DNA from: a virus | Length of the DNA stretch: 64,000 nt | IMG/VR virus record: IMGVR_UViG_3300037200_000120 | Location: 34,893 to 98,892 of that record | Reading direction: 5' to 3' (one strand) | Shown here: positions 18,558-37,165 of the stretch, piece by piece | Position numbering within the stretch: position 1 is the stretch's first letter | How the letters are laid out: every line of letters starts with the position of its first letter | The notes under the pieces: generated by a model | The model's input: the letters and a program-made list of their open reading frames with translations, nothing else | Told to the model about the DNA's origin: nothing | Database searches by the model: none | Made by a program: the position numbers and the translations under genes

Positions 18558-18871
18558 CCGGTGCGCGAGCCGTTGACGCCGCTTTCTTTAACCCAGAACG
18601 TATTCGTCGATCCGCCCTGATTGTTCGAATAGAAATCGCCTAGATTGCCGGCGATGACGTTTTCGGGGGAACCTACCCCGGAACTCCATTTCTGGCCATT
18701 GCCGAGCGTCACCGTCGAAGTCGTTCCGGCCACGGTTCCGTTCAGCGCGTTCGTGATGTTGGTCAGAAAGCGCAGCCCTTGACCGGTAAGCAGATGCTGG
18801 GCGCCAGTCGCCATGTCTTTGGTCAGAGCGAGCGCGGCATTGGCCGAGGTGACGAGAGGCTTGTTTACCAT
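18542..18871 (-). CDS. Small virion protein (hypothetical)
   Basis: GVGSPENVIAGNLGDFY...FWVKESG...TGW motif seen in phage structural proteins. Confidence 0.55.
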   Translation of the reverse strand: MVNKPLVTSANAALALTKDMATGAQHLLTGQGLRFLTNITNALNGTVAGTTSTVTLGNGQKWSSGVGSPENVIAGNLGDFYSNNQGGSTNTFWVKESGVNGSRTGWVNK

Positions 18872-20550
18872 CAGACTTCTTCGATGTCGGCCGTGGCATA
18901 CGCCGCGATGAATGTCCTGGGAACCGGATCAGACACCACGATCCTAAACCGCCAGTCCCGAGCCGCGCCCAACTTCTTCCAGATCAGGCGCGTCGCATAG
19001 GCCCCGGTCTTCCCCAAACTCATCCAGAGTTGCCTGATGCCATAGGTTCTGCCTTGATCCTTGGAAATCATCAGCATGATTTGAGGGTCCGAGCCCTGCC
19101 CGGTCTGTGGCGCGTCGCCGACTTGCATGTTCAGTTCGAGTTTGGAGATGAAGACCCGCTTCCGGTCTTTGTGAACCGGGGGCGAATCGGCAAACCCGAT
19201 CATCGGCGATCCGAACTCGGTGTAAACCGAGTCGGAGAGGTAGCCGATCTGGCCGGATTGAGAATCCCCGATCAGGGTTTGATTGTTGAACACGACCGAA
19301 CAGTTGCCGCGCCACGCCCCGTCGAACGGCGTCGCGGCGACATACGATGTCCGCTCATGCCAGAGGCTGGTCGCGATGTCCAGTTCCCACGTCGCGTTGT
19401 TGCTGGGAAATTGCACTGCGACGAACTTGTGGCCGTTGAACGTGTAGGAGAACGCATAGGCATCTCCCGTGTTGGCATATTTCTGCCACGCGCCTTCGAT
19501 AGCGTGCGTGCTCATGCGCCTGAGTAAGACGCCGTCGAGGCGGTAGAACACCAGATCGTTGCCGAGAAAGAAAACCCCGTTGTCTTCCTTGACGATCGCC
19601 AGCGCAGCCGCGCAACCACGCTCGATCGTCGCCCCGTCATACCGGGAGAACGGATCGTTGTTCGCCCCGGTATCGTACCAGGTCTCGATCGTCTTCTGTT
19701 TGAAGATCAGAAGATTTTCTTGCTGGTTTACCGTCGCGAGAACGTAACTGGAATCGACGGAGGCCTCGTTGTAATCCAGCGCCGTATAAGTGGTTCCATC
19801 ATTATTGTTGGAGTAAACCCACTGGTTTGTTCCGGTGACGTCGTTGGTAAAATAGGTATCGAAGAATGTCGTCGTGGCTGCATCAGCGAAATTAGGGATC
19901 TGAGAAAACCCGACCGGAGGGCCAGTAAATGTCAGGTTGAAACTGGCCCCAGAACCGACGCCGGTGGTCGCCGCCTGTTCGGCTGGATTTGTGGGTTCGG
20001 TTCCATATTGGCCCGGCGAGTAGATCGTGAACGAAGCCGCAGCCGAGCCGCTGAGTGTGGCGACTTCGAGGATCGCCGGGTTCGTATAGGTTCCCCCGGC
20101 GACCGTGATCTGATCGCCGATCGCATAGTCCGAGCCGGAAGACCCGCCGACCGGCGTCGCGGCCGAGACATTGAACACGGAAGTCGGAGCATAGATCCAA
20201 CCGGCGACGCCGTTGACGATCTGGACTTGCGTTCCGTTGTTGGCCATCGAAACCGGGCCGAACCCGGCGATGCCAGAGCCCAACTCCGTCACCGTGTCGG
20301 CGACGGTCACGCTGTAGAGCGACTGTCCCGACACGAGGTAGAGGACGTTGTTCATGACGCTGAAGCCGCGGATCGGGCCGTTGCCCACCGTGACCAAAGT
20401 AATGATCCCAGGAGAGGCAATCACAGCGATGTCGGTTTTGGCGTCAGGCGGCTCTTTCTCGGCGTAGAGATTGACACAGCGTTGCGAGGATACCGGGAGG
20501 GAGTCGAGTTTGTACGATTGTGTCGACCATTGGATACGGAGCGGTTCCAT
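18871..20550 (-). CDS. Packaged DNA stabilization/tail hub protein (P22 gp10-like)
   Basis: SQRCVNLY, GPIRG, IERGCAA, TWELDIATSLWHER, SKDQGRTYG...LGKTGAY motifs. Confidence 0.85.
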   Translation of the reverse strand: MEPLRIQWSTQSYKLDSLPVSSQRCVNLYAEKEPPDAKTDIAVIASPGIITLVTVGNGPIRGFSVMNNVLYLVSGQSLYSVTVADTVTELGSGIAGFGPVSMANNGTQVQIVNGVAGWIYAPTSVFNVSAATPVGGSSGSDYAIGDQITVAGGTYTNPAILEVATLSGSAAASFTIYSPGQYGTEPTNPAEQAATTGVGSGASFNLTFTGPPVGFSQIPNFADAATTTFFDTYFTNDVTGTNQWVYSNNNDGTTYTALDYNEASVDSSYVLATVNQQENLLIFKQKTIETWYDTGANNDPFSRYDGATIERGCAAALAIVKEDNGVFFLGNDLVFYRLDGVLLRRMSTHAIEGAWQKYANTGDAYAFSYTFNGHKFVAVQFPSNNATWELDIATSLWHERTSYVAATPFDGAWRGNCSVVFNNQTLIGDSQSGQIGYLSDSVYTEFGSPMIGFADSPPVHKDRKRVFISKLELNMQVGDAPQTGQGSDPQIMLMISKDQGRTYGIRQLWMSLGKTGAYATRLIWKKLGAARDWRFRIVVSDPVPRTFIAAYATADIEEV

Positions 20551-24795: not shown

Positions 24796-25506
24796 TTAGA
24801 GCTTGTGCTTCGCTAGATAGGCGATGGCGCGTTGGAGAATGGCCTGATCGTCTCGACCGTAGCCGAGCATTCGATTGCAGCGGACGCAAAGGAGACCGCG
24901 AACCTTGCCGGTGTCGTGATCGTGGTCTACGGACAACTCTTGGACTACTTTCGTCCTCGAGTTGATGAAACTCTCAGGATTGCCGCATATGTCGCAAACA
25001 TACCCTTGAGCTTTCGCCAGGGCGGCATATTCCGTCACGTCGATGCCGAACTTTTTCTTCAGCGTCCAATTGCGGACGTAATCGGCACGCTCTTGCGGCG
25101 TGAAGTAGTCCTTGACGGGAACCTCAGGCGGCGGCAACCAGAACAGATTGTCTTTCACCCACGGGCCGGTAGGATCGATCAGCCTGAGAACATGCTTTGG
25201 GCCTGGACGCTCCCCGACATCGGCGAGGAAGGCGTCAAACCAGCGCCAGGAGGCCGGATAGTTGCCGGCCCCTAAGCGCAGCCTCGTATTTTTCCAGAGC
25301 GGCTTTAACGGGTGACTGTCCCGCGCGTAATGGTGCGAGCAAAGCTTCTTGGCGAAAACGATTTCCGTGCATCCCTCGATATCGCACGTTCTCGTCAATT
25401 CCGAGTATTCAGACAACGTACCGCTGGTGCGCTCGCTTTCGTAGCACCCAGTGCATAATCCGCGCCCTTGGTTGCGCTTATCTCTACCGCATTTCCTGCA
25501 TATCAT
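24796..25506 (-). CDS. Free-standing homing endonuclease, endonuclease VII family
   Basis: C-terminal KKFGI...Q...CDICG...LSVDHDHDTGKVRGLLCVRCNRMLG = Endonuclease_7 motif; N-terminal Cys-rich zinc motifs; start ATG 25506 inferred. Confidence 0.85.
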   Translation of the reverse strand: MICRKCGRDKRNQGRGLCTGCYESERTSGTLSEYSELTRTCDIEGCTEIVFAKKLCSHHYARDSHPLKPLWKNTRLRLGAGNYPASWRWFDAFLADVGERPGPKHVLRLIDPTGPWVKDNLFWLPPPEVPVKDYFTPQERADYVRNWTLKKKFGIDVTEYAALAKAQGYVCDICGNPESFINSRTKVVQELSVDHDHDTGKVRGLLCVRCNRMLGYGRDDQAILQRAIAYLAKHKL

Positions 25507-25587: not shown

Positions 25588-27705
25588 TCAGACGCCAGGC
25601 CATTATTTCACCCTCGGTCGCTATCCCGAAGATCGTCCACTGAGGACTGCTGAACGTTTCCGCTCAGAGAAGACCATATCATGATCTCTCGAAAGAGACC
25701 CTGCGCACTTCCCGCCGCTTGGCGGTACTCCCCGAAGGGATGGCCGTTGAACCTTCCGCTCATTGAGCGGCTCGGCTGCTGATTGTCCAATCTAGTTGCT
25801 TTTCAAACTATCGCGCCCGCCGTTGCCGGCCACGCTGTAGTGAACTAGCTCTAAGGATGTTCCAGCAATTCACGCAGTTATTCGACAGTAGTCGCCTACT
25901 GAAGGACCCAATATGTGGCGTCACATATAGTAACGAGTCCCGTAGATCCCGCGGAAGTCGCTCCAACCGCAAGAATAACGCTCGTAACAAGCCGCTTTGG
26001 CGTTCTTGGTATCGACGCTTATGTTCGATTTGGATAGCAACTCCAAACCCGTCCTAAGTGGACTGCCTCATATTACTATGAGGGCCAGACTATATCATCA
26101 TCCTGAATACTCAGGAGTGGGGCGCTTCGGCTCGCTTGAGCCTACGATCTCGCGATCTAGTCGTTGCACCTTCCGTCTCTCGACGGCTTGGCTCAGGATT
26201 GTCCCCGGCACCACCCGGTAGGAGATTCCCTGAGTTCACCCCATTCTTCGATGCGAGTCACCCCGCAAAGGACCTAATTCCAAAGAATTGAGTCGTTGTC
26301 CTGATCGCTAACTATTCGAAATGAATCGCTAATTCATCCCCGGCTTGCGCCTGCTGCACGTTTCCGCGCAGAGTGGACTATATCTTCATCTATTCAATAC
26401 TGAATAGAGCTAGGAACTTCGGCCCGCTTGGGCCTACGGTCTCGCGACCTAGTCTCTGAACCTTCATCACGATATTACATGATGCTTGGCTGCTGATTGC
26501 CCAATCCTGCAAATTTTCAAACCGTCACGCTCGCCGTTACCAGCCACGTTGTGGTTTTGCAGGCTCTAAGGGTGTTCCAGCAATTCACCTAGTTTAGACA
26601 GCTCCAATCATTAAAGCTGATGCCCTCGCGCTCGTACCACATCATCCCGCGCGGGATATTCGTCCTGATAAACCAGGCGGTCGCGCTGGAGAAATAGTGG
26701 CTGGCGAAGATCCCCTTCGGGAAAGCTCCCATGGCGCGCATCACGTTGATGTTGTTGTTCGCCGTGTCGCTCTGAAGCACGCTCTTGTAGATGCGGTTAG
26801 CTTCGAAGATGAGCTGATAGGGGATATGGAGGGACTGAGGAAGCGCGGAGATTTTCAGCCCGCGCGAATTGACCGTGAGGCCGACCTGGATCAGCAGATC
26901 CTCGATTGCGGTTTCGGACAAGTCCGCCGCCGTCGTGAGGAGATTCGACTGAGAGCCGCCGACAGTCGGATGCGCATTGTTGATCATGCACGTTCCGTCG
27001 CCGCCCGTATAGGCCGTGTTGAATGCACGGTTGTAGACGTTGGCCGCGATGTTTTCCTTGGTCTGCCGCATCGAGAACGCCAATTGCTGGGCGCGACGCT
27101 TGCTGACCACTTCGTAGAGATCGTCTTTCAACTCTTCGTACGTGACGATGTAGCCGAGAGCATAGGCGACGTTCGTATAGCGAGTGACCGAACCCTGGGT
27201 TTCGGTGTCGTACACGATCGAAGTGCCTTCGTTCTTGACCGGCGCCAAGCCGAAGCCGGTGATTTCGACCTCTTCTTCGTACGCCTTGTCTGAGGTGTCC
27301 TGCTCGAACAGATCCGACCATTCGGAAACGTGTTCGTCGTAGGAACGCCCCCACCAAGCCGCGATTCCTGGCCAAAGGGCCTTCGCTTGTTTGTTCGACG
27401 CAATTCGCTAGATTGCGCCCGTCGCTCTAAACGCGACCGCTGCATATCGCTATGCAGGCCTGACTATCTCTTGCCCCTCAATTGATCGATAGGGGCCGCA
27501 CCATTTCGGCTCGCTTGAGCCTACGGCCTTTCGGCCTAGTCGATGAACCTTACGACGTGCTATGATCGTCGTCTTGGCTGCTGATTGTCCGATCGTCGGA
27601 ATCAGAACGAGCGGAGTTCCCGGCAATTAAATGCGATCCCATTGCGCATTACGGCGCAATGGCCCGAGTTTATGCAGGATGTGTGCCTGTAGTAATAACG
27701 GCCAT
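25588..27705 (-). CDS. Major capsid protein, spliced: exons 27705-27676, 27383-26614, 26307-26291, 26015-25936, 25599-25588 (302 aa)
   Basis: RBS AGGAGG + ATG 27705; joined exons give one open frame MAVITTGTHP|KALWPGIAAWWG...EREGISF|DQDNDF|DTKNAKAACYERYSCGWSDFRGIYGT|PGV* (both F codons span junctions); lies downstream of the scaffold gene. Confidence 0.9.
25600..25935 (-). mobile_element. Group I intron 4 in major capsid gene (336 nt, no ORF)
   Basis: P1 GGACU/GGUCC; AAUUGCUGGAA, AAUCAGCAG; covariant P7 GGCCA/UGGUC; GACGCCA pairs with exon 5 UGGCGUC; terminal G. Confidence 0.88.
26016..26290 (-). mobile_element. Group I intron 3 in major capsid gene (275 nt, no ORF)
   Basis: P1 GACU/GGUC; AACUCAGGGAA, AAUCCUGAG, GUGCAACGACUA, AUGAUAUAGUC; terminal G. 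Confidence 0.9.
26308..26613 (-). mobile_element. Group I intron 2 in major capsid gene (306 nt, no ORF)
   Basis: P1 CAGCUU/GAGCUG with U-G at the splice site; P10 GAUUG/CGAUC; AAUUGCUGGAA, AAUCAGCAG, GUUCAGAGACUA, AAGAUAUAGUC; terminal G. Confidence 0.92.
27384..27675 (-). mobile_element. Group I intron 1 in major capsid gene (292 nt, no ORF)
   Basis: Exon ends in U, intron ends in G; core motifs AAUUGCCGGGAA, AAUCAGCAG, GUUCAUCGACUA, AAGAGAUAGUC; two hairpins after the 5' strand of P7. Confidence 0.9.
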
Positions 27706-30223: not shown

Positions 30224-31039
30224 TTAGACGAATCCGTCGCCGAACGCGCGGACTCGCGGCCGAGCGCAATCGTCGACCGGCTTACCATCAGGTCCATCAT
30301 TTATGACTGGAGCCGCCTCTTCCCTGATCTCGATCGTCCCGAGGTCGGGTTGATCGCCCTTCCTCAGTTTGGCCAACGCACCCCAGTCGAATGTCGCAAC
30401 CTTAACCGGGTCCAATGTCGCGAACCTAACCGGATGATCGACAGGCATCCGCCACAGACAATCGAGAACCGCATTCCTGTACGCGTAGCCGCGCCCCTTG
30501 TCGTCGCGAATAATGCAAGGAGCGGGCATATCGTTCCATGCGGCGTGGCCGTCCTTCACCACGATTGCAACCTCGTGGATGCAATTGTGAAGGTTTTCGA
30601 AGAGCGTGATTTCTCGCTCTTCCTCGGAGCATTCCCTGATCTCGATCGCCCCGATGCAGTTCTGTTCGCATAGCCGATAGACCTTGCCATCCTTGCCGAG
30701 AACGAGTTGGCCGGAATAGCGCTGCATGTAGATCCGGTCGCCGGGCGAAGGCTTCAACCCTTCCCATCGGCGGGTACGATCGGCATTCCAGAGATAAGCA
30801 TCGGAACCGAGCGCGACGACGACGCCGGATTCGGCGGCCATAGACATCCGATCGGTCGTTTCGACGGTCAGGACTATACCGCCGCTGGTCTTTTCCGCCG
30901 CGCAATCGGGCGCGATCAGCACCATATCCCCGAGGGGATGATAGCCGGACTCGTTGGAGCCGGTCCATTCGGCGGCGACGAATTCGTGTTGCTGGGAGGA
31001 CTTGAGAAGACGGGGCTTGACTTGATCGTGAGGCTTCAT
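30224..31039 (-). CDS. groES: GroES-like co-chaperonin with C-terminal extension
   Basis: PLGDMVLI...EKTSGGIVL...GVVVALG...PGDRI...YSG motif. Confidence 0.8.
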   Translation of the reverse strand: MKPHDQVKPRLLKSSQQHEFVAAEWTGSNESGYHPLGDMVLIAPDCAAEKTSGGIVLTVETTDRMSMAAESGVVVALGSDAYLWNADRTRRWEGLKPSPGDRIYMQRYSGQLVLGKDGKVYRLCEQNCIGAIEIRECSEEEREITLFENLHNCIHEVAIVVKDGHAAWNDMPAPCIIRDDKGRGYAYRNAVLDCLWRMPVDHPVRFATLDPVKVATFDWGALAKLRKGDQPDLGTIEIREEAAPVINDGPDGKPVDDCARPRVRAFGDGFV

Positions 31040-31817: not shown

Positions 31818-32123
31818 TCATTTCGGAAAATTCGCCACAAAGAGTTTCGTCAGATCGCCGGGATGAAACGCGTTCGACGGTATATCCTCGACACGCTTGC
31901 CGTCGGCCAAGAGATACGGCGGCGGCTCGAATTCGCTGACGCCACAGCCAGGAATGGCTCGGAGAATCGCGGCGCCGAACTTGTCGCGATCGATCTCCAT
32001 CACGATCTTGAGGCCGTTGCCGTCGGTCGCGGTCGACTGGATAGCGGCGATCATGGCGTCCAACGCGGACATGAACGGCTTTTCTCGGATAACGATCATG
32101 TCGGGACCAATTCGTTTGTTCAT
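31818..32123 (-). CDS. Hypothetical protein
   Basis: Start overlaps the portal stop codon. Confidence 0.4.
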   Translation of the reverse strand: MNKRIGPDMIVIREKPFMSALDAMIAAIQSTATDGNGLKIVMEIDRDKFGAAILRAIPGCGVSEFEPPPYLLADGKRVEDIPSNAFHPGDLTKLFVANFPK

Positions 32124-34423
32124 GGAGTAACCGCGCCTTGAGCCTGGGGCGCAGCGCCGGGCTGGCCCGTCGAGGCGTCGATCTCCGCGCTGGGATCGTT
32201 CGCCGCCGCGGTTCCGGCAAGCCCGGCGTTGGCTTGGGCATCCATCGCCGTCTTGATCACGTCCAACTGATGCGTGGCCCAGGCCACGTCACTCTGCCCG
32301 ACAGCCTTATCCGCATTGGCCAGGGCCAGAATAGCCTGAGCCCGGAAGTTCAACGCCTTGGCCTGTTCGGATTCGATCAGCGCGGCGTCGTGACGCTCCC
32401 TGAGCTGAAGCCCAGCTTCTTTTTCGGCCTGCTGCATATCCACGGTTTGCTTCTTGATCAGCAGTTCCTGCATCTTCGCCACGATCGCAGGATTCGGCGG
32501 CGGGTTCGCGGTAAAGAGATCGTCGATGTTTTCGATTTGCGCCGCTTCGAGATTGCGGCGGACCAGCTTCTTCTGATCGAATAGCGGATTGCCTTCGTAT
32601 TGTTTGAGAAACCCGGCGCGGCCGAGTTTCTGCATATCCGTGACCATCGTCGGATCGGAGACCGGCTCGACGCCAGAGCCCCTCTCGTAATCCGCACGGG
32701 TGATCTTGCGCCAGTCAGATCCGACCTTGTATTCGGTGTCCTGGTCGAGATAGAGCCGGTTCAAGCGATAGAGCTTGGCGAGCTCCGCTTTGAGCGAGCG
32801 ATGAACCCGCTTGTAGATCGCAGTGAACGTCTTCAACCCCTGTTCGACCATCGCGAGCATCGTCGTGGCAGGCGTATTGGCTGGCATCGCTTCGCCGGTT
32901 AGGACATCCTTGACCCCTGCCACTTCCTTGCCAGCTTCGATCAAGAGGCCGAGCAGCTTGAACAGCACTTCATTCGGGCCCGGAGCCGGGAGCGGCACCA
33001 GTGAATCCCGAACCGATTGGCCAGGCGAGTTGACCGGCTTCCACTCGCCGGGCTGAAACCGGATCTGGCCGGAATTCATCGACAAGCCCTTGCCGATGAA
33101 CCCGCCGCCGACCACGGCGAGATGACCGGCATCGATCATCATGTTGAGCGTCGTGTTGATCGAGGCGTTCAGCGACTTCAATAGTTGCCCGAAGCCAAGA
33201 CCGTATATACCGCCTTCCGTGTTCGGAAGGAAGTTGTAAATCGTGTAATAGTGAACCGGATCGATCTTTTGAATCCGGCCCTTGGTGAAGTTGTACTTTA
33301 TTCCGTCCAACTCGAACCGGGCCACAATCCTGACGACTTTTTGTGATTCCTGGTGAACGGTGACGATATACGGTTCAGGATAGCCGTCATCATCCATATC
33401 ATACCAACGATGCTGCTCCAAGAACAGAATAGGAGCATCAGTATCGCCGTCTTGACCCGTCTGCGGATACGTGATTTCCAGCCAAGTGCCGGCAAGTTCC
33501 TTCTCCTTGATTTCCAAGGGATAGAACGTGATAAGTTCCGTAAGGCGAGGCGCAATTTCCAGCGCTCTGGCCTTGTAATTGATGCAGAGGTCTTTGGCCT
33601 GCACCATCAGGCTCGAATTACGATCCTTGTCGGCGTCGAAGAACGACTTCCGGAACACGCACCCCACGATCGGGAGGATATGCAGGAGTTGATCGGTTTC
33701 CGGCTCCCATTCCGGTTGCTCGTCGAGGAGCTGCCAGGACATGTGTTCGCCGACGCGATCGGCTCGGGTTTGTTTGTAGCCGGGAACCTGGGGCGTGCCG
33801 TCCTTGCCGACCATCCATTGTGACGGGTCGTTGGGATCGGCTTGTAGCGGAGGACCGCCGTTGTGACCTATGCCGGGAGGCGCCGGCGCTTGACCGGGAG
33901 GAGCGCCGGGTTGTGGCGGCTGCTGTTGCGCTTTGGCCGCAGCGGCGGCGGCCACCGCTTGCGGATTGGGAACGCCGTCGTCGGACCCGATGACGACGCC
34001 TTTGACGACTTCCTTCCCGGCGATGATAGCGGGATAGGCGCGAGCCGCGAACTGAATCGCCGCGGTCGTCATCAACGGGAAGATCACGGCCGATGCTTTC
34101 GGCCATGGGTACGACTTCGGCTCCGCTTGCTGCATCGCAAGCTTCATCGCTTCCTCAGACTTGTCCAGCCATTCGGAGCGCGAGTTTTCGTCGATGTCGT
34201 ATTCTCGGCAGACCAGGGCGCCGATCTTGATCAGTTCGTTATCGTCGGGGCCATCGGCTTCCAGCGCGATATTGTTGGAATTGGCCCAGCGATGGAGGCG
34301 TTCGAGGACTTCGGGCTCAGGCGGCTTCAGCGAGGCAAGCTTCGGCGAGCCGTCAGGCGCTATCGGGTTGTCGTCGTCAGTGTCCGCGTCGCCGAGATCG
34401 GCGAGGCCCGAGAGATCGTTCAC
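32120..34423 (-). CDS. Portal protein (P22-like)
   Basis: 767 aa; SRSEW...PWPKAS...TAAIQFAARAY; YGLGFG; NMMIDAG; downstream of terminase. Confidence 0.9.
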   Translation of the reverse strand: MNDLSGLADLGDADTDDDNPIAPDGSPKLASLKPPEPEVLERLHRWANSNNIALEADGPDDNELIKIGALVCREYDIDENSRSEWLDKSEEAMKLAMQQAEPKSYPWPKASAVIFPLMTTAAIQFAARAYPAIIAGKEVVKGVVIGSDDGVPNPQAVAAAAAAKAQQQPPQPGAPPGQAPAPPGIGHNGGPPLQADPNDPSQWMVGKDGTPQVPGYKQTRADRVGEHMSWQLLDEQPEWEPETDQLLHILPIVGCVFRKSFFDADKDRNSSLMVQAKDLCINYKARALEIAPRLTELITFYPLEIKEKELAGTWLEITYPQTGQDGDTDAPILFLEQHRWYDMDDDGYPEPYIVTVHQESQKVVRIVARFELDGIKYNFTKGRIQKIDPVHYYTIYNFLPNTEGGIYGLGFGQLLKSLNASINTTLNMMIDAGHLAVVGGGFIGKGLSMNSGQIRFQPGEWKPVNSPGQSVRDSLVPLPAPGPNEVLFKLLGLLIEAGKEVAGVKDVLTGEAMPANTPATTMLAMVEQGLKTFTAIYKRVHRSLKAELAKLYRLNRLYLDQDTEYKVGSDWRKITRADYERGSGVEPVSDPTMVTDMQKLGRAGFLKQYEGNPLFDQKKLVRRNLEAAQIENIDDLFTANPPPNPAIVAKMQELLIKKQTVDMQQAEKEAGLQLRERHDAALIESEQAKALNFRAQAILALANADKAVGQSDVAWATHQLDVIKTAMDAQANAGLAGTAAANDPSAEIDASTGQPGAAPQAQGAVTP

Positions 34424-34881: not shown

Positions 34882-35103
34882 TCAATGCAGCTTCCCCGCT
34901 TCCGCGCGCTCTTCGTCCGTCACTTCGGCCGCAATCCATTTCCCACCCGGGAATGGCCCGGCGACAACACGCAGACATTTGCGGACGCTGACGAATTCCG
35001 CGTCGTCGTCGCCATCAAAAAAATAGTTGGTGATTGGCGCGGTTTCCGAACCGCGCTTGACGACACCGTCGAGAAGATCGACCGAAACCTCGCGTTCGCT
35101 CAT
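34882..35103 (-). CDS. Hypothetical protein
   Basis: Start overlaps the upstream stop (ATGA). Confidence 0.45.
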   Translation of the reverse strand: MSEREVSVDLLDGVVKRGSETAPITNYFFDGDDDAEFVSVRKCLRVVAGPFPGGKWIAAEVTDEERAEAGKLH

Positions 35104-35593: not shown

Positions 35594-37165
35594 TCAATAC
35601 CCCGTCACGGGCGACCGGCTCTGATAGCCGTCGTCGGCAAAACCGTCTTCGTCAGGATAGGCGCCCTGCATGTCGATGACGGGCTCGGCGAAGGTGAGGA
35701 TAACGCTCGACCACTCGTCGGGCGACGGAACGCCGCGCGACCTCATGTGTTCGCCGGATTCGATCACGAGTCTTTGGTTCATGTCGTAGCCGTAACCAGG
35801 CGCGCACGCATCAGCGTGGAGGCTATCGAGATCAGGGATATCAGCCCCGCCGACGTCAAGCAACCAATCTTTCGACCGCATCCACATTTCGTCGCGGCGC
35901 AGCCGCCCGCCGGGCTTTTTGGTTCCATCGTCGAGAACGATATATTCATTCTGCGGCTTGGACCCGAAATTGACCGCGACGCAAATCCGGGAATAGGGCA
36001 AGCCCCACGAAACCAGAATGTCGAACACCCCAGCGCCGAGGCCCCCGACGTCGATGAAGCAGCGATCCGGACGCATCTCGTCGATTTCCGACTTGACCCA
36101 GTTGGCCCCAGAAACCACGTCGATCTTGTTCTTGGACTGGACGCCGAGGATTTTGCGACCACAGCGATAGGAGATCGAGAAACGGTCGTTGCCGAACCGA
36201 GCCGGATCGACACCCATGACGAGCGGACCGAAGCCGTCCAGTTTGGCTTTCCTAGCGCGAAGAATGTCGACCGGTTTGATGAAACTGTCGTGGCCGGTGG
36301 TCTGGAAGCTCTCCGCCGCCGTCGCGGGGTATTCCTGCTTGAAAAGCATCGGGTCTTTCAGTTCGGCGATCTTGTTGCGGCGCCAAGCCATTTGTTCTTG
36401 GTCAAGGCTGTAAGCCTCGGCGTAGTCGAGTTCTTCGTCGTCCAACTCGAAATCCTCTGGGGCAGGCCGACGATATTCGTCCTGCCAAAACCACGGAACG
36501 AAGATCGGAACGAAATCACTCTTGCCTCGTTCAGCGTCGACCCAATCGGAATGGAACAAGTTGTTCATTCCGTTGGCCGTGCTCTCCTTGATAACCTCAG
36601 TCCCGCGCTCGTCCGGAACGGTCTGCATGATGCCGGCGGAATGCGAGGCCGCAAACTTCCAGAACGCCATCTCCGAAGCGTGCAAAAGTTGGATTGTCGA
36701 CGATCTTCCCACGCCCTGAGAGCCGGCCGTTCCCACCTTGTACCCGCTGTCCAATCCTGGAAACATCAACTCCTTGGCATTCGCGTTGCCGGCCATGGGC
36801 CGCACGAGTTCGGGGCAATGATCATGAAACCGCTGCACCATATCGAACAAGTTTTGTGTCGCCGCATCCTCGTGCGTCAGGATGAAAACCCGCAACCCAC
36901 GCGAATGCGTGATGCGATGATAGAACCGCCCCCCGACGTATGTGGACGTTCCTTGTTGACGACCCTTCAAGATTTGAGCCCGGACGCGGCCCGTATCCCG
37001 CCGCTGAGCCTCAAGCCGCGCGTGGATAAACCGCTGCGCCCTGTTGAACAAGAAGGGAAGCGTCGTTCCGCTCTTGGTCCGTATCTTCAAACACCTCGAC
37101 GCGTAGTGTTCGAGATCGTCCTTGAGGCGCTGGCGGATCGCCCGTTCCTCACTTGAGGGCGGCAA
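35594..37165 (-). CDS. terL: Terminase large subunit
   Basis: ILKGRQQG Walker A; LLHASEMAFW Walker B; ESTANG; GVDPARFGND nuclease motif. Confidence 0.95.
   Translation of the reverse strand: MPPSSEERAIRQRLKDDLEHYASRCLKIRTKSGTTLPFLFNRAQRFIHARLEAQRRDTGRVRAQILKGRQQGTSTYVGGRFYHRITHSRGLRVFILTHEDAATQNLFDMVQRFHDHCPELVRPMAGNANAKELMFPGLDSGYKVGTAGSQGVGRSSTIQLLHASEMAFWKFAASHSAGIMQTVPDERGTEVIKESTANGMNNLFHSDWVDAERGKSDFVPIFVPWFWQDEYRRPAPEDFELDDEELDYAEAYSLDQEQMAWRRNKIAELKDPMLFKQEYPATAAESFQTTGHDSFIKPVDILRARKAKLDGFGPLVMGVDPARFGNDRFSISYRCGRKILGVQSKNKIDVVSGANWVKSEIDEMRPDRCFIDVGGLGAGVFDILVSWGLPYSRICVAVNFGSKPQNEYIVLDDGTKKPGGRLRRDEMWMRSKDWLLDVGGADIPDLDSLHADACAPGYGYDMNQRLVIESGEHMRSRGVPSPDEWSSVILTFAEPVIDMQGAYPDEDGFADDGYQSRSPVTGY

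Follow-up and report, generated by a model that had tools for sequence, protein, structure and literature searches.

The window analysed here is a 64,000-nt stretch (positions 34,893 to 98,892) of the IMG/VR virus record IMGVR_UViG_3300037200_000120, a 98.9-kb genome of an uncultured GC-rich peat phage that is estimated to be 95% complete; all gene coordinates are positions in this window. On the minus strand between 27705 and 25588, only a 219-amino-acid (aa) capsid fragment was visible in the open reading frame (ORF) listing. The original prediction held that this fragment belongs to a major capsid gene split by four ORF-less group I introns, with one exon of only 17 nt. Four inserts at exactly the predicted coordinates, all without ORFs, matched the group I intron model Rfam RF00028 above its gathering score of 50 bits, and the capsid stop codon is directly followed by the ORF of a free-standing nuclease with an Endo VII motif (Table 1).

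Table 1. Features of the interrupted capsid gene and of its surroundings in the window
Feature	Position	Strand	Evidence or remark
Shine-Dalgarno box AGGAGG	27716-27711	minus	5 nt upstream of ATG (27705-27703), read from sequence
Exon 1, 30 nt, MAVITTGTHP	27676..27705	minus	Colinear with homologue N termini; last base T
Intron 1, 292 nt, phase 0, ORF-less group I	27384..27675	minus	RF00028 match 27440-27681, minus, 50.5 bits; TAA stop 6 nt inside
Exon 2, 770 nt, P0001, body of HK97-fold capsid protein	26614..27383	minus	PF25209, phrog_371
Intron 2, 306 nt, phase 2	26308..26613	minus	RF00028 match 26354-26623, minus, 82.1 bits; splits Phe267 (TT/C)
Exon 3, 17-nt micro-exon, C GAT CAG GAC AAC GAC T	26291..26307	minus	Required for colinearity with invariant FDQDNDF block
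Intron 3, 275 nt, phase 1	26016..26290	minus	RF00028 match 26066-26295, minus, 67.7 bits; splits Phe273 (T/TC)
Exon 4, 80 nt	25936..26015	minus	Colinear alignment
Intron 4, 336 nt, phase 0	25600..25935	minus	RF00028 match 25650-25945, minus, 52.0 bits; TGA stop 15 nt inside
Exon 5, 12 nt, PGV and TGA stop	25588..25599	minus	C terminus ...GTPGV and stop common to homologues
Free-standing Endo VII-motif nuclease gene	24796..25506 (frame open from 25584; likely ATG 25506)	minus	Candidate homing endonuclease
Terminase gene	35594-37165	minus	Head module
Portal gene	32120-34423	minus	Head module
Head-closure gene	18871-20550	minus	Head module

Removal of the four inserts joins exons of 30, 770, 17, 80, and 12 nt into a single 909-nt frame of 302 aa that begins behind a strong ribosome-binding site and ends in GIYGTPGV and a stop codon, exactly as had been predicted. 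The introns (292, 306, 275, and 336 nt) account for 1209 of the 2118 nt, or 57% of the span of the gene, and three of the four (introns 2 to 4, inserted at coding positions 800, 817, and 897) lie inside the last 110 nt of the coding sequence. A search with exon 2 (P0001) returned approximately 8000 homologues, overwhelmingly of 302 to 303 aa. The colinearity implied by the prediction was found when the spliced 302-aa product was aligned by MAFFT with twelve intron-less homologues of 301 to 303 aa: the alignment was free of gaps at all four junctions. Exons 2, 3, and 4 together encode the block SFDQDNDFDTKNAKAACYERY, which runs across junctions 2 and 3 and was essentially invariant in the homologues, and the same two junctions restore the codons of Phe267 and Phe273, so that both the micro-exon and the two split Phe codons of the prediction were confirmed. 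The junction peptide of the spliced capsid product from this allele is expected to be ...EGISFDQDNDFDTK....

The prediction had come with a proposal to search with covariance models, and cmscan of the whole 98.9-kb genome yielded RF00028 matches to the four introns, all covering the full model (1 to 253), and none beyond those of the capsid gene. The sequence features on which the prediction was built were present in all four introns. An exonic T (U) precedes each intron, the last intron base is always G (omega-G), and a script found a P1 helix with the U.G pair at the splice site in every case, with lengths of 5, 6, 4, and 6 bp for introns 1 to 4 (AUCCU/GGGAU, CAGCUU/GAGCUG, GACU/GGUC, and GGGACU/GGUCCU, respectively). 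The predicted pairing of intron 2 is a textbook case, in which a continuous 12-nt guide (intron nt 4 to 15) forms P1 with the 6 nt at the end of exon 2 and a contiguous 6-bp P10 with the 6 nt at the start of the micro-exon. The P1 of intron 2 has 3 bp in addition to these 6. Within the 17-nt exon, the first 6 nt (P10 of intron 2) and the last 4 nt (P1 of intron 3) do not overlap. The cmscan alignments contained the conserved core (P3 to P8, with the P/Q/R/S elements) in all four introns, represented by AAUUGC-GGAA, CAGCAGCCAAG, AAGGUUCA-CGACUA, and GAUAUAGUC, together with a two-hairpin insert of approximately 31 nt after the 5' strand of P7, which we take to be the P7.1/P7.2 element of subgroup IA phage introns such as those of T4 td and Twort. 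In nucleotide searches, the cores resembled introns of Staphylococcus, Bacillus, Listeria, Vibrio, and other phages, and one core was matched under the annotated capsid gene of Bacillus phage SP-15.

In-frame stop codons lie 6 to 25 nt past the 5' splice site of every intron; such early stops have been noted for phage group I introns, in which translation into the core disturbs folding (PMC3984707). No endonuclease ORF was found within the introns, which are only 275 to 336 nt long and whose longest ORFs do not exceed 60 aa. A recent intragenic duplication of one intron was considered and rejected: the four introns are only 57 to 67% alike and are no closer to one another than to introns of the related loci L012 and L048, and they are therefore not recent copies of each other.

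The assignment of the gene as the major capsid gene, also part of the original prediction, was borne out by domain, fold, and gene context. Exon 2 alone matched PF25209 (Phage_capsid_4) with 27.3 bits against a cutoff of 27 and PHROG 371 (phrog_371), a major head protein family, and PF25209 was present in all homologues listed. A structural model of P0002, a 94%-identical uninterrupted homologue, was built from a 38-sequence alignment (predicted local distance difference test score [pLDDT] of 78, predicted template modelling score [pTM] of 0.74) and in a fold search matched the capsids of HK97, T5, and D3 as well as encapsulins, with E values of about 1e-9; a sequence search of the capsid protein profile against the PDB gave no meaningful match. 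Genes for the terminase, the portal, and head closure place the capsid gene in a head module, and no second capsid homologue was found in the genome (98.9 kb, estimated to be 95% complete). To judge from the modelled fold, the interrupted gene is the single HK97-fold major capsid gene of this phage, and since the genome has no other capsid gene, splicing of all four introns would be obligatory for the formation of virions. The head module also contains a 271-aa ORF (30224-31039, minus strand) whose residues 33 to 132 match the phage co-chaperonin GroES family (phrog_3188, 2.8e-10). A scan of genome contigs for a prophage or host found no relative; the capsid homologue P0017 bears the database label of a Methylocella metagenome-assembled genome.

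Public DNA and RNA runs were used in the form of assembled contigs, not raw reads, and parts of the capsid gene that were uncovered in the RNA runs are uninformative. In DNA run X2, which was filed in 2018 by another study, two contigs were 100% identical to the window, one over 26173-26377 (intron 3, micro-exon, and intron 2) and one over 26392-26622 (intron 2 and exon 2). The interrupted gene is thus real DNA in a second sample, and an assembly artefact or chimera is ruled out by independent, fully identical contigs that run across the micro-exon and into both flanking introns. The same sequence therefore stands at 100% identity in two peat samples filed in 2018 and 2020 by different studies.

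The prediction also called for a spliced transcript, and here the outcome was divided: joined exons and a circle of intron 2 were both found among contigs of the peat metatranscriptome X3, but these contigs derive from relatives that are 93 to 96% identical to the window. One X3 contig runs without interruption from the end of exon 2 through the micro-exon and exon 4 to GTPGV and the stop codon; in a second, exon 1 is joined to exon 2. A further X3 contig (292 nt, depth of 6.8) joins position 26308 to position 26606 and has 10 differences in 244 nt (96% identical). Read in the RNA sense, the G predicted to end intron 2 is ligated here to base 8 of the same intron, which corresponds to a circle of 299 nt without the 7 nt at the 5' end. 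The position of the break is clear: even the shorter side measures 48 nt, the two sides have no sequence in common at the joint that could explain a misassembly, and the joint falls exactly at the 3' end of intron 2 as predicted from protein colinearity. Truncated circles are a classic side product of excised group I introns, as with the L-15 and L-19 circles of Tetrahymena. The contig would accordingly count as in situ evidence for catalytic activity of a 96%-identical relative of intron 2, and it is not proof for this allele. The circle and the joined-exon contigs of these relatives are indirect evidence that the introns of the window may undergo guanosine-dependent self-splicing. A separate RNA contig from run X4 (590 nt, depth of approximately 2300) has in common with intron 2 only a 34-nt segment of the P5 region (26552-26585) and presumably represents some other RNA of the peat community, for example an unrelated group I intron with high expression.

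Several observations weigh against a functional set of four introns. Introns 1 and 4 score barely above the Rfam threshold (50.5 and 52.0 versus 50 bits). The Rfam model stops 46 to 56 nt short of each 3' splice site, so that the 3' ends of introns 1, 3, and 4 rest on protein colinearity, the exception being intron 2, whose end is marked by the circle junction. The P1 of intron 3 has just 4 bp and is followed by a C.A mismatch, and a contiguous P10 is absent for introns 1, 3, and 4. Skipping of the 17-nt exon would shift the capsid frame. The joined-exon contigs of X3 differ by 5 to 7% from the window and match none of the fetched loci; they could represent the spliced RNA of a relative or else the transcript or DNA of an intron-less relative, so that they attest the joined form itself and not its origin by splicing. 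The circle contig, at 96% identity, likewise does not come from this exact allele.

The borderline scores of introns 1 and 4, the short P1 of intron 3, and the derivation of the joined-exon and circle contigs from relatives, with none from the exact allele, would fit a dead gene, in which at least one insert no longer splices and the contig represents a non-viable or helper-dependent genome. Such a dead gene is extremely unlikely in view of the state of the sequence: the five exons are intact, in frame, and 94 to 96% identical in protein to uninterrupted relatives; nucleotide differences (13 to 18%) far outnumber amino acid differences; none of the four introns has lost a core element or departs from either splice-site rule; and the same sequence recurs, fully identical, in the two peat samples.

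The occurrence of introns across the capsid family was surveyed in 33 loci from IMG/VR and 42 from metagenomes, with some overlap between the two sets, so that about 60 loci were sampled. The capsid gene was uninterrupted in nearly all loci, while several relatives have between one and three introns, at sites that coincide in part. The closest relatives, L005 to L009 and L039 to L041 at 94 to 95% identity and L038 at 96% identity, were all intron-less; the DNA of the nearest relatives is 13 to 18% divergent from the window. At least five or six insertion sites were identified in the family. They lie in the most conserved stretches of the gene, with K11, F267, and D270 to F273 invariant or nearly so in the 38-sequence alignment. 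Loci L012, L013, and L044 have an intron at exactly site 3 of the window, which is the closest relative of window intron 3 (69%), and another intron after approximately codon 19. A strong intron of 102.6 bits interrupts the L048 capsid gene close to its 5' end and is preceded by the 3' part of another. In L066 (289-1141) and L062 (1-680), a long intron of approximately 850 nt near codon 20 encodes a 202-aa GIY-YIG endonuclease ORF (Pfam, 1.5e-09), and the Rfam matches of these two introns (39.5 and 35.8 bits) fall below the gathering score, the core being divided by the ORF. No other locus sampled has as many full introns as the window, and the capsid family, as judged by these sequences, is an intron hot spot.

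Further irregularities were seen in individual loci. In L012 (3705-3717), a relative at 81% identity, the capsid frame is interrupted behind ...AAGGCCT by 13 inserted nt, GAACCATTATATG, which L013 and L044 also have. T precedes the insert, and G is its last base. A full group I intron lies 21 nt downstream of it, and the 5' exon of that intron likewise ends in GCCT; if the insert and the two full introns of L012 are taken out, a perfect protein of 301 aa results. The short exon before the insert differs from the window by mostly synonymous changes and so is evidently read in frame by the ribosome. In sequence, the insert is similar to the 3' end of the L048 intron at nearly the same site and may be a deletion remnant. 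The L048 contig itself (L048:1-390) begins inside a group I intron, continues with an apparent exon of approximately 25 to 30 nt, and then enters the complete 102.6-bit intron; this may be another micro-exon arrangement, here at the 5' end of the gene, with a tentative exon reading. L042 and L063 have an in-frame stop codon within an otherwise conserved capsid C terminus (in L042, TAG for the Glu of CYERY; in L063, TGA), which could reflect sequencing errors, dead copies, or recoding.

The original prediction had suggested that four self-splicing events could act as a timing or dosage control on capsid output, and the family survey did not sustain this idea. An adaptive timer or dosage valve, coupled for example to GTP or Mg2+ levels, translation, or host state, would be in keeping with the obligatory nature of all four splicing events for the only capsid protein, and condition-dependent splicing has been reported for the psbA intron of phage S-PM2 (PMC5931967). 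It is nonetheless very unlikely, as nearly all relatives, even at 94 to 96% protein identity, make the same protein from an uninterrupted gene; the number and the sites of the introns differ among lineages; the introns occupy the most conserved nucleotide stretches, as homing elements do; and no sensor is indicated by the sequence. The absence of all four introns from the closest relatives indicates that they are recent, dispensable mobile elements, and the variation of intron number and position by lineage marks them as optional, recently acquired selfish elements and not as a conserved regulatory device.

Taken together, these findings make it very probable that the capsid gene at 27705-25588 is interrupted by four compact, ORF-less, self-splicing group I introns of the IA type, that these are selfish mobile elements, and that splicing of the late pre-mRNA yields a 302-aa HK97-fold protein. 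In the proposed mechanism, the internal guide of each intron would pair with the last 4 to 6 exon bases, with U.G at the splice site, and all four introns would be removed from the late pre-mRNA by two-step transesterification initiated by guanosine, the terminal G of each intron being used at the 3' splice site. The 909-nt mRNA would then be translated into the capsid protein, while the in-frame stops 6 to 25 nt inside the introns would keep ribosomes off the ribozyme cores. The introns would have entered the most conserved stretches of the gene as selfish elements and not as adaptive gene parts. The anatomy, the membership in the group I family, the colinearity, and the polymorphism among relatives are shown directly, whereas we infer that this allele is spliced and how its introns move. 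As the introns have no endonuclease of their own, their most likely route of spread is recombination following double-strand breaks that are made in trans, for which the optional downstream Endo VII-type nuclease would be the obvious candidate.

The 262-aa nuclease ORF matches PF02945 (6e-22) on residues 175 to 258, that is, over its C-terminal 84 residues, as well as phrog_2914 and phrog_307, and no other Endo VII-domain gene was found in the genome. The gene is optional and stands between two conserved genes. It follows the capsid gene in the window, in L012/L013, in L048, and in at least 10 other loci, and it is absent from L005 to L009 and approximately 17 others; in L005 to L009, a homologue of a 472-aa ORF directly follows the capsid gene.

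By collaborative homing, capsid alleles without introns would be cut by this nuclease close to the C-terminal insertion sites. In the window's own genome, the introns would interrupt the target and so protect it, and repair would copy the nuclease gene together with the three clustered introns into the recipient. We regard this as possible but tentative. The C-terminal position of the catalytic Endo VII motif (residues 175 to 258 of 262) is like that of F-CphI (PMC6083498), and the S-PM2 psbA intron with F-CphI provides a published precedent (PMC5931967, PMC6083498). Furthermore, three of the four introns lie in the last 110 coding nt, beside the nuclease gene; that gene is optional, as its absence from L005 to L009 attests; and it is present in all three intron-bearing lineages with a known downstream context (window, L012/L013, and L048). 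Against this stand at least 10 intron-less alleles that carry the nuclease gene at the same place, where introns are consequently unneeded for self-immunity. The association of introns with the nuclease is weak (3 of 3 versus approximately 10 of 27; Fisher test, approximately 0.07, uncorrected for relatedness), and the nucleotides at the insertion sites show no difference between nuclease-plus and nuclease-minus alleles. No co-conversion footprint was seen, identity to relatives being flat along the gene, and the nearest relatives, at 13 to 18% divergence in DNA, are too far for a co-conversion test. In addition, intron 1 is separated from the nuclease gene by 2 kb of DNA, and as the sole Endo VII-domain gene of the genome, the nuclease could alternatively be the junction resolvase of the phage.

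A more specific form of collaborative homing, in which an F-CphI-like nuclease mobilises the three ORF-less introns (within 97 coding nt) as one co-conversion unit and each intron breaks part of the target and so confers immunity, is conjectural and rather unlikely. If true, it would extend collaborative homing from a single intron to several clustered introns within a structural gene that the phage cannot do without, and the 17-nt micro-exon would record repeated invasions, one after another, of a single target region of the nuclease. With its several insertion sites, its ORF-less and GIY-YIG introns, and its optional Endo VII gene, the capsid family is suited to the study of how introns and free-standing nucleases spread together.

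The interruption of the gene has consequences for annotation. Gene callers report only a 219-aa fragment of the sole capsid gene of this phage; classification and abundance estimates based on capsid genes would miss or truncate such genes, and intron-aware annotation is therefore needed for uncultured soil and peat phages. In addition, to make its most abundant protein the virus would have to tolerate four obligatory ribozyme reactions on one transcript, one of them spanning an exon of only 17 nt, which implies that splicing must be fast and accurate. Finally, public metatranscriptome contigs can catch intron circle junctions, a form of in situ evidence for ribozyme activity in uncultured phages.

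Comparison with known systems tempers the novelty attached to the locus in the original prediction, because introns in capsid genes, phage genes with three introns, and a capsid gene in five fragments have all been published. In mycobacteriophage LittleE, a group I intron in the capsid gene is spliced efficiently, as determined by reverse transcription-PCR and N-terminal sequencing (PMC3706429), and the capsid gene of lactococcal phage Tuc2009 also has a group I intron, as cited in the same paper. These capsid genes are like that of the window in that the late gene with the highest expression harbours a group I intron; the difference is that each of them has a single intron, which in LittleE contains an endonuclease ORF. 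Orf142 of Staphylococcus phage Twort has three group I introns (Landthaler and Shub 1999, as cited in PMC11878797 and PMC6669764), and the DNA polymerase and terminase genes of Bastillevirinae have up to three (PMC11878797). As in the window, several small IA-type self-splicing introns with the same core motifs are clustered in one essential phage gene, and the window introns have direct nucleotide similarity to staphylococcal and Bacillus phage introns. In contrast, the window has four introns in 909 coding nt, all of them ORF-less, with one 17-nt exon, and belongs to an uncultured GC-rich peat phage and not to a Firmicutes phage.

The crAss-like Zeta-group genome OLRF01000054 likewise has its major capsid gene in five fragments separated by four inserts (Yutin et al. 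2021, PMC7886860). Those inserts were recognised in three of the four cases by intron-type protein domains (endonucleases), whereas the window inserts are four short ORF-less ribozymes, verified by covariance model and with base-exact junctions. In cyanophage S-PM2, the psbA intron interrupts the target of the free-standing F-CphI, an arrangement termed "collaborative homing" (PMC6083498, PMC5931967). Both loci consist of ORF-less intron(s) in a conserved gene followed by an optional gene with a C-terminal Endo VII motif; the window differs in having several introns instead of one and in that its candidate nuclease gene is present beside intron-less alleles also. The locus thus has precedents, although the selfish introns are unusually dense here for an essential phage gene. 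What is particular to it is the combination of four verified ORF-less introns, a 57% intron span, a 17-nt exon, an adjacent F-CphI-like gene, and an environmental circle junction.

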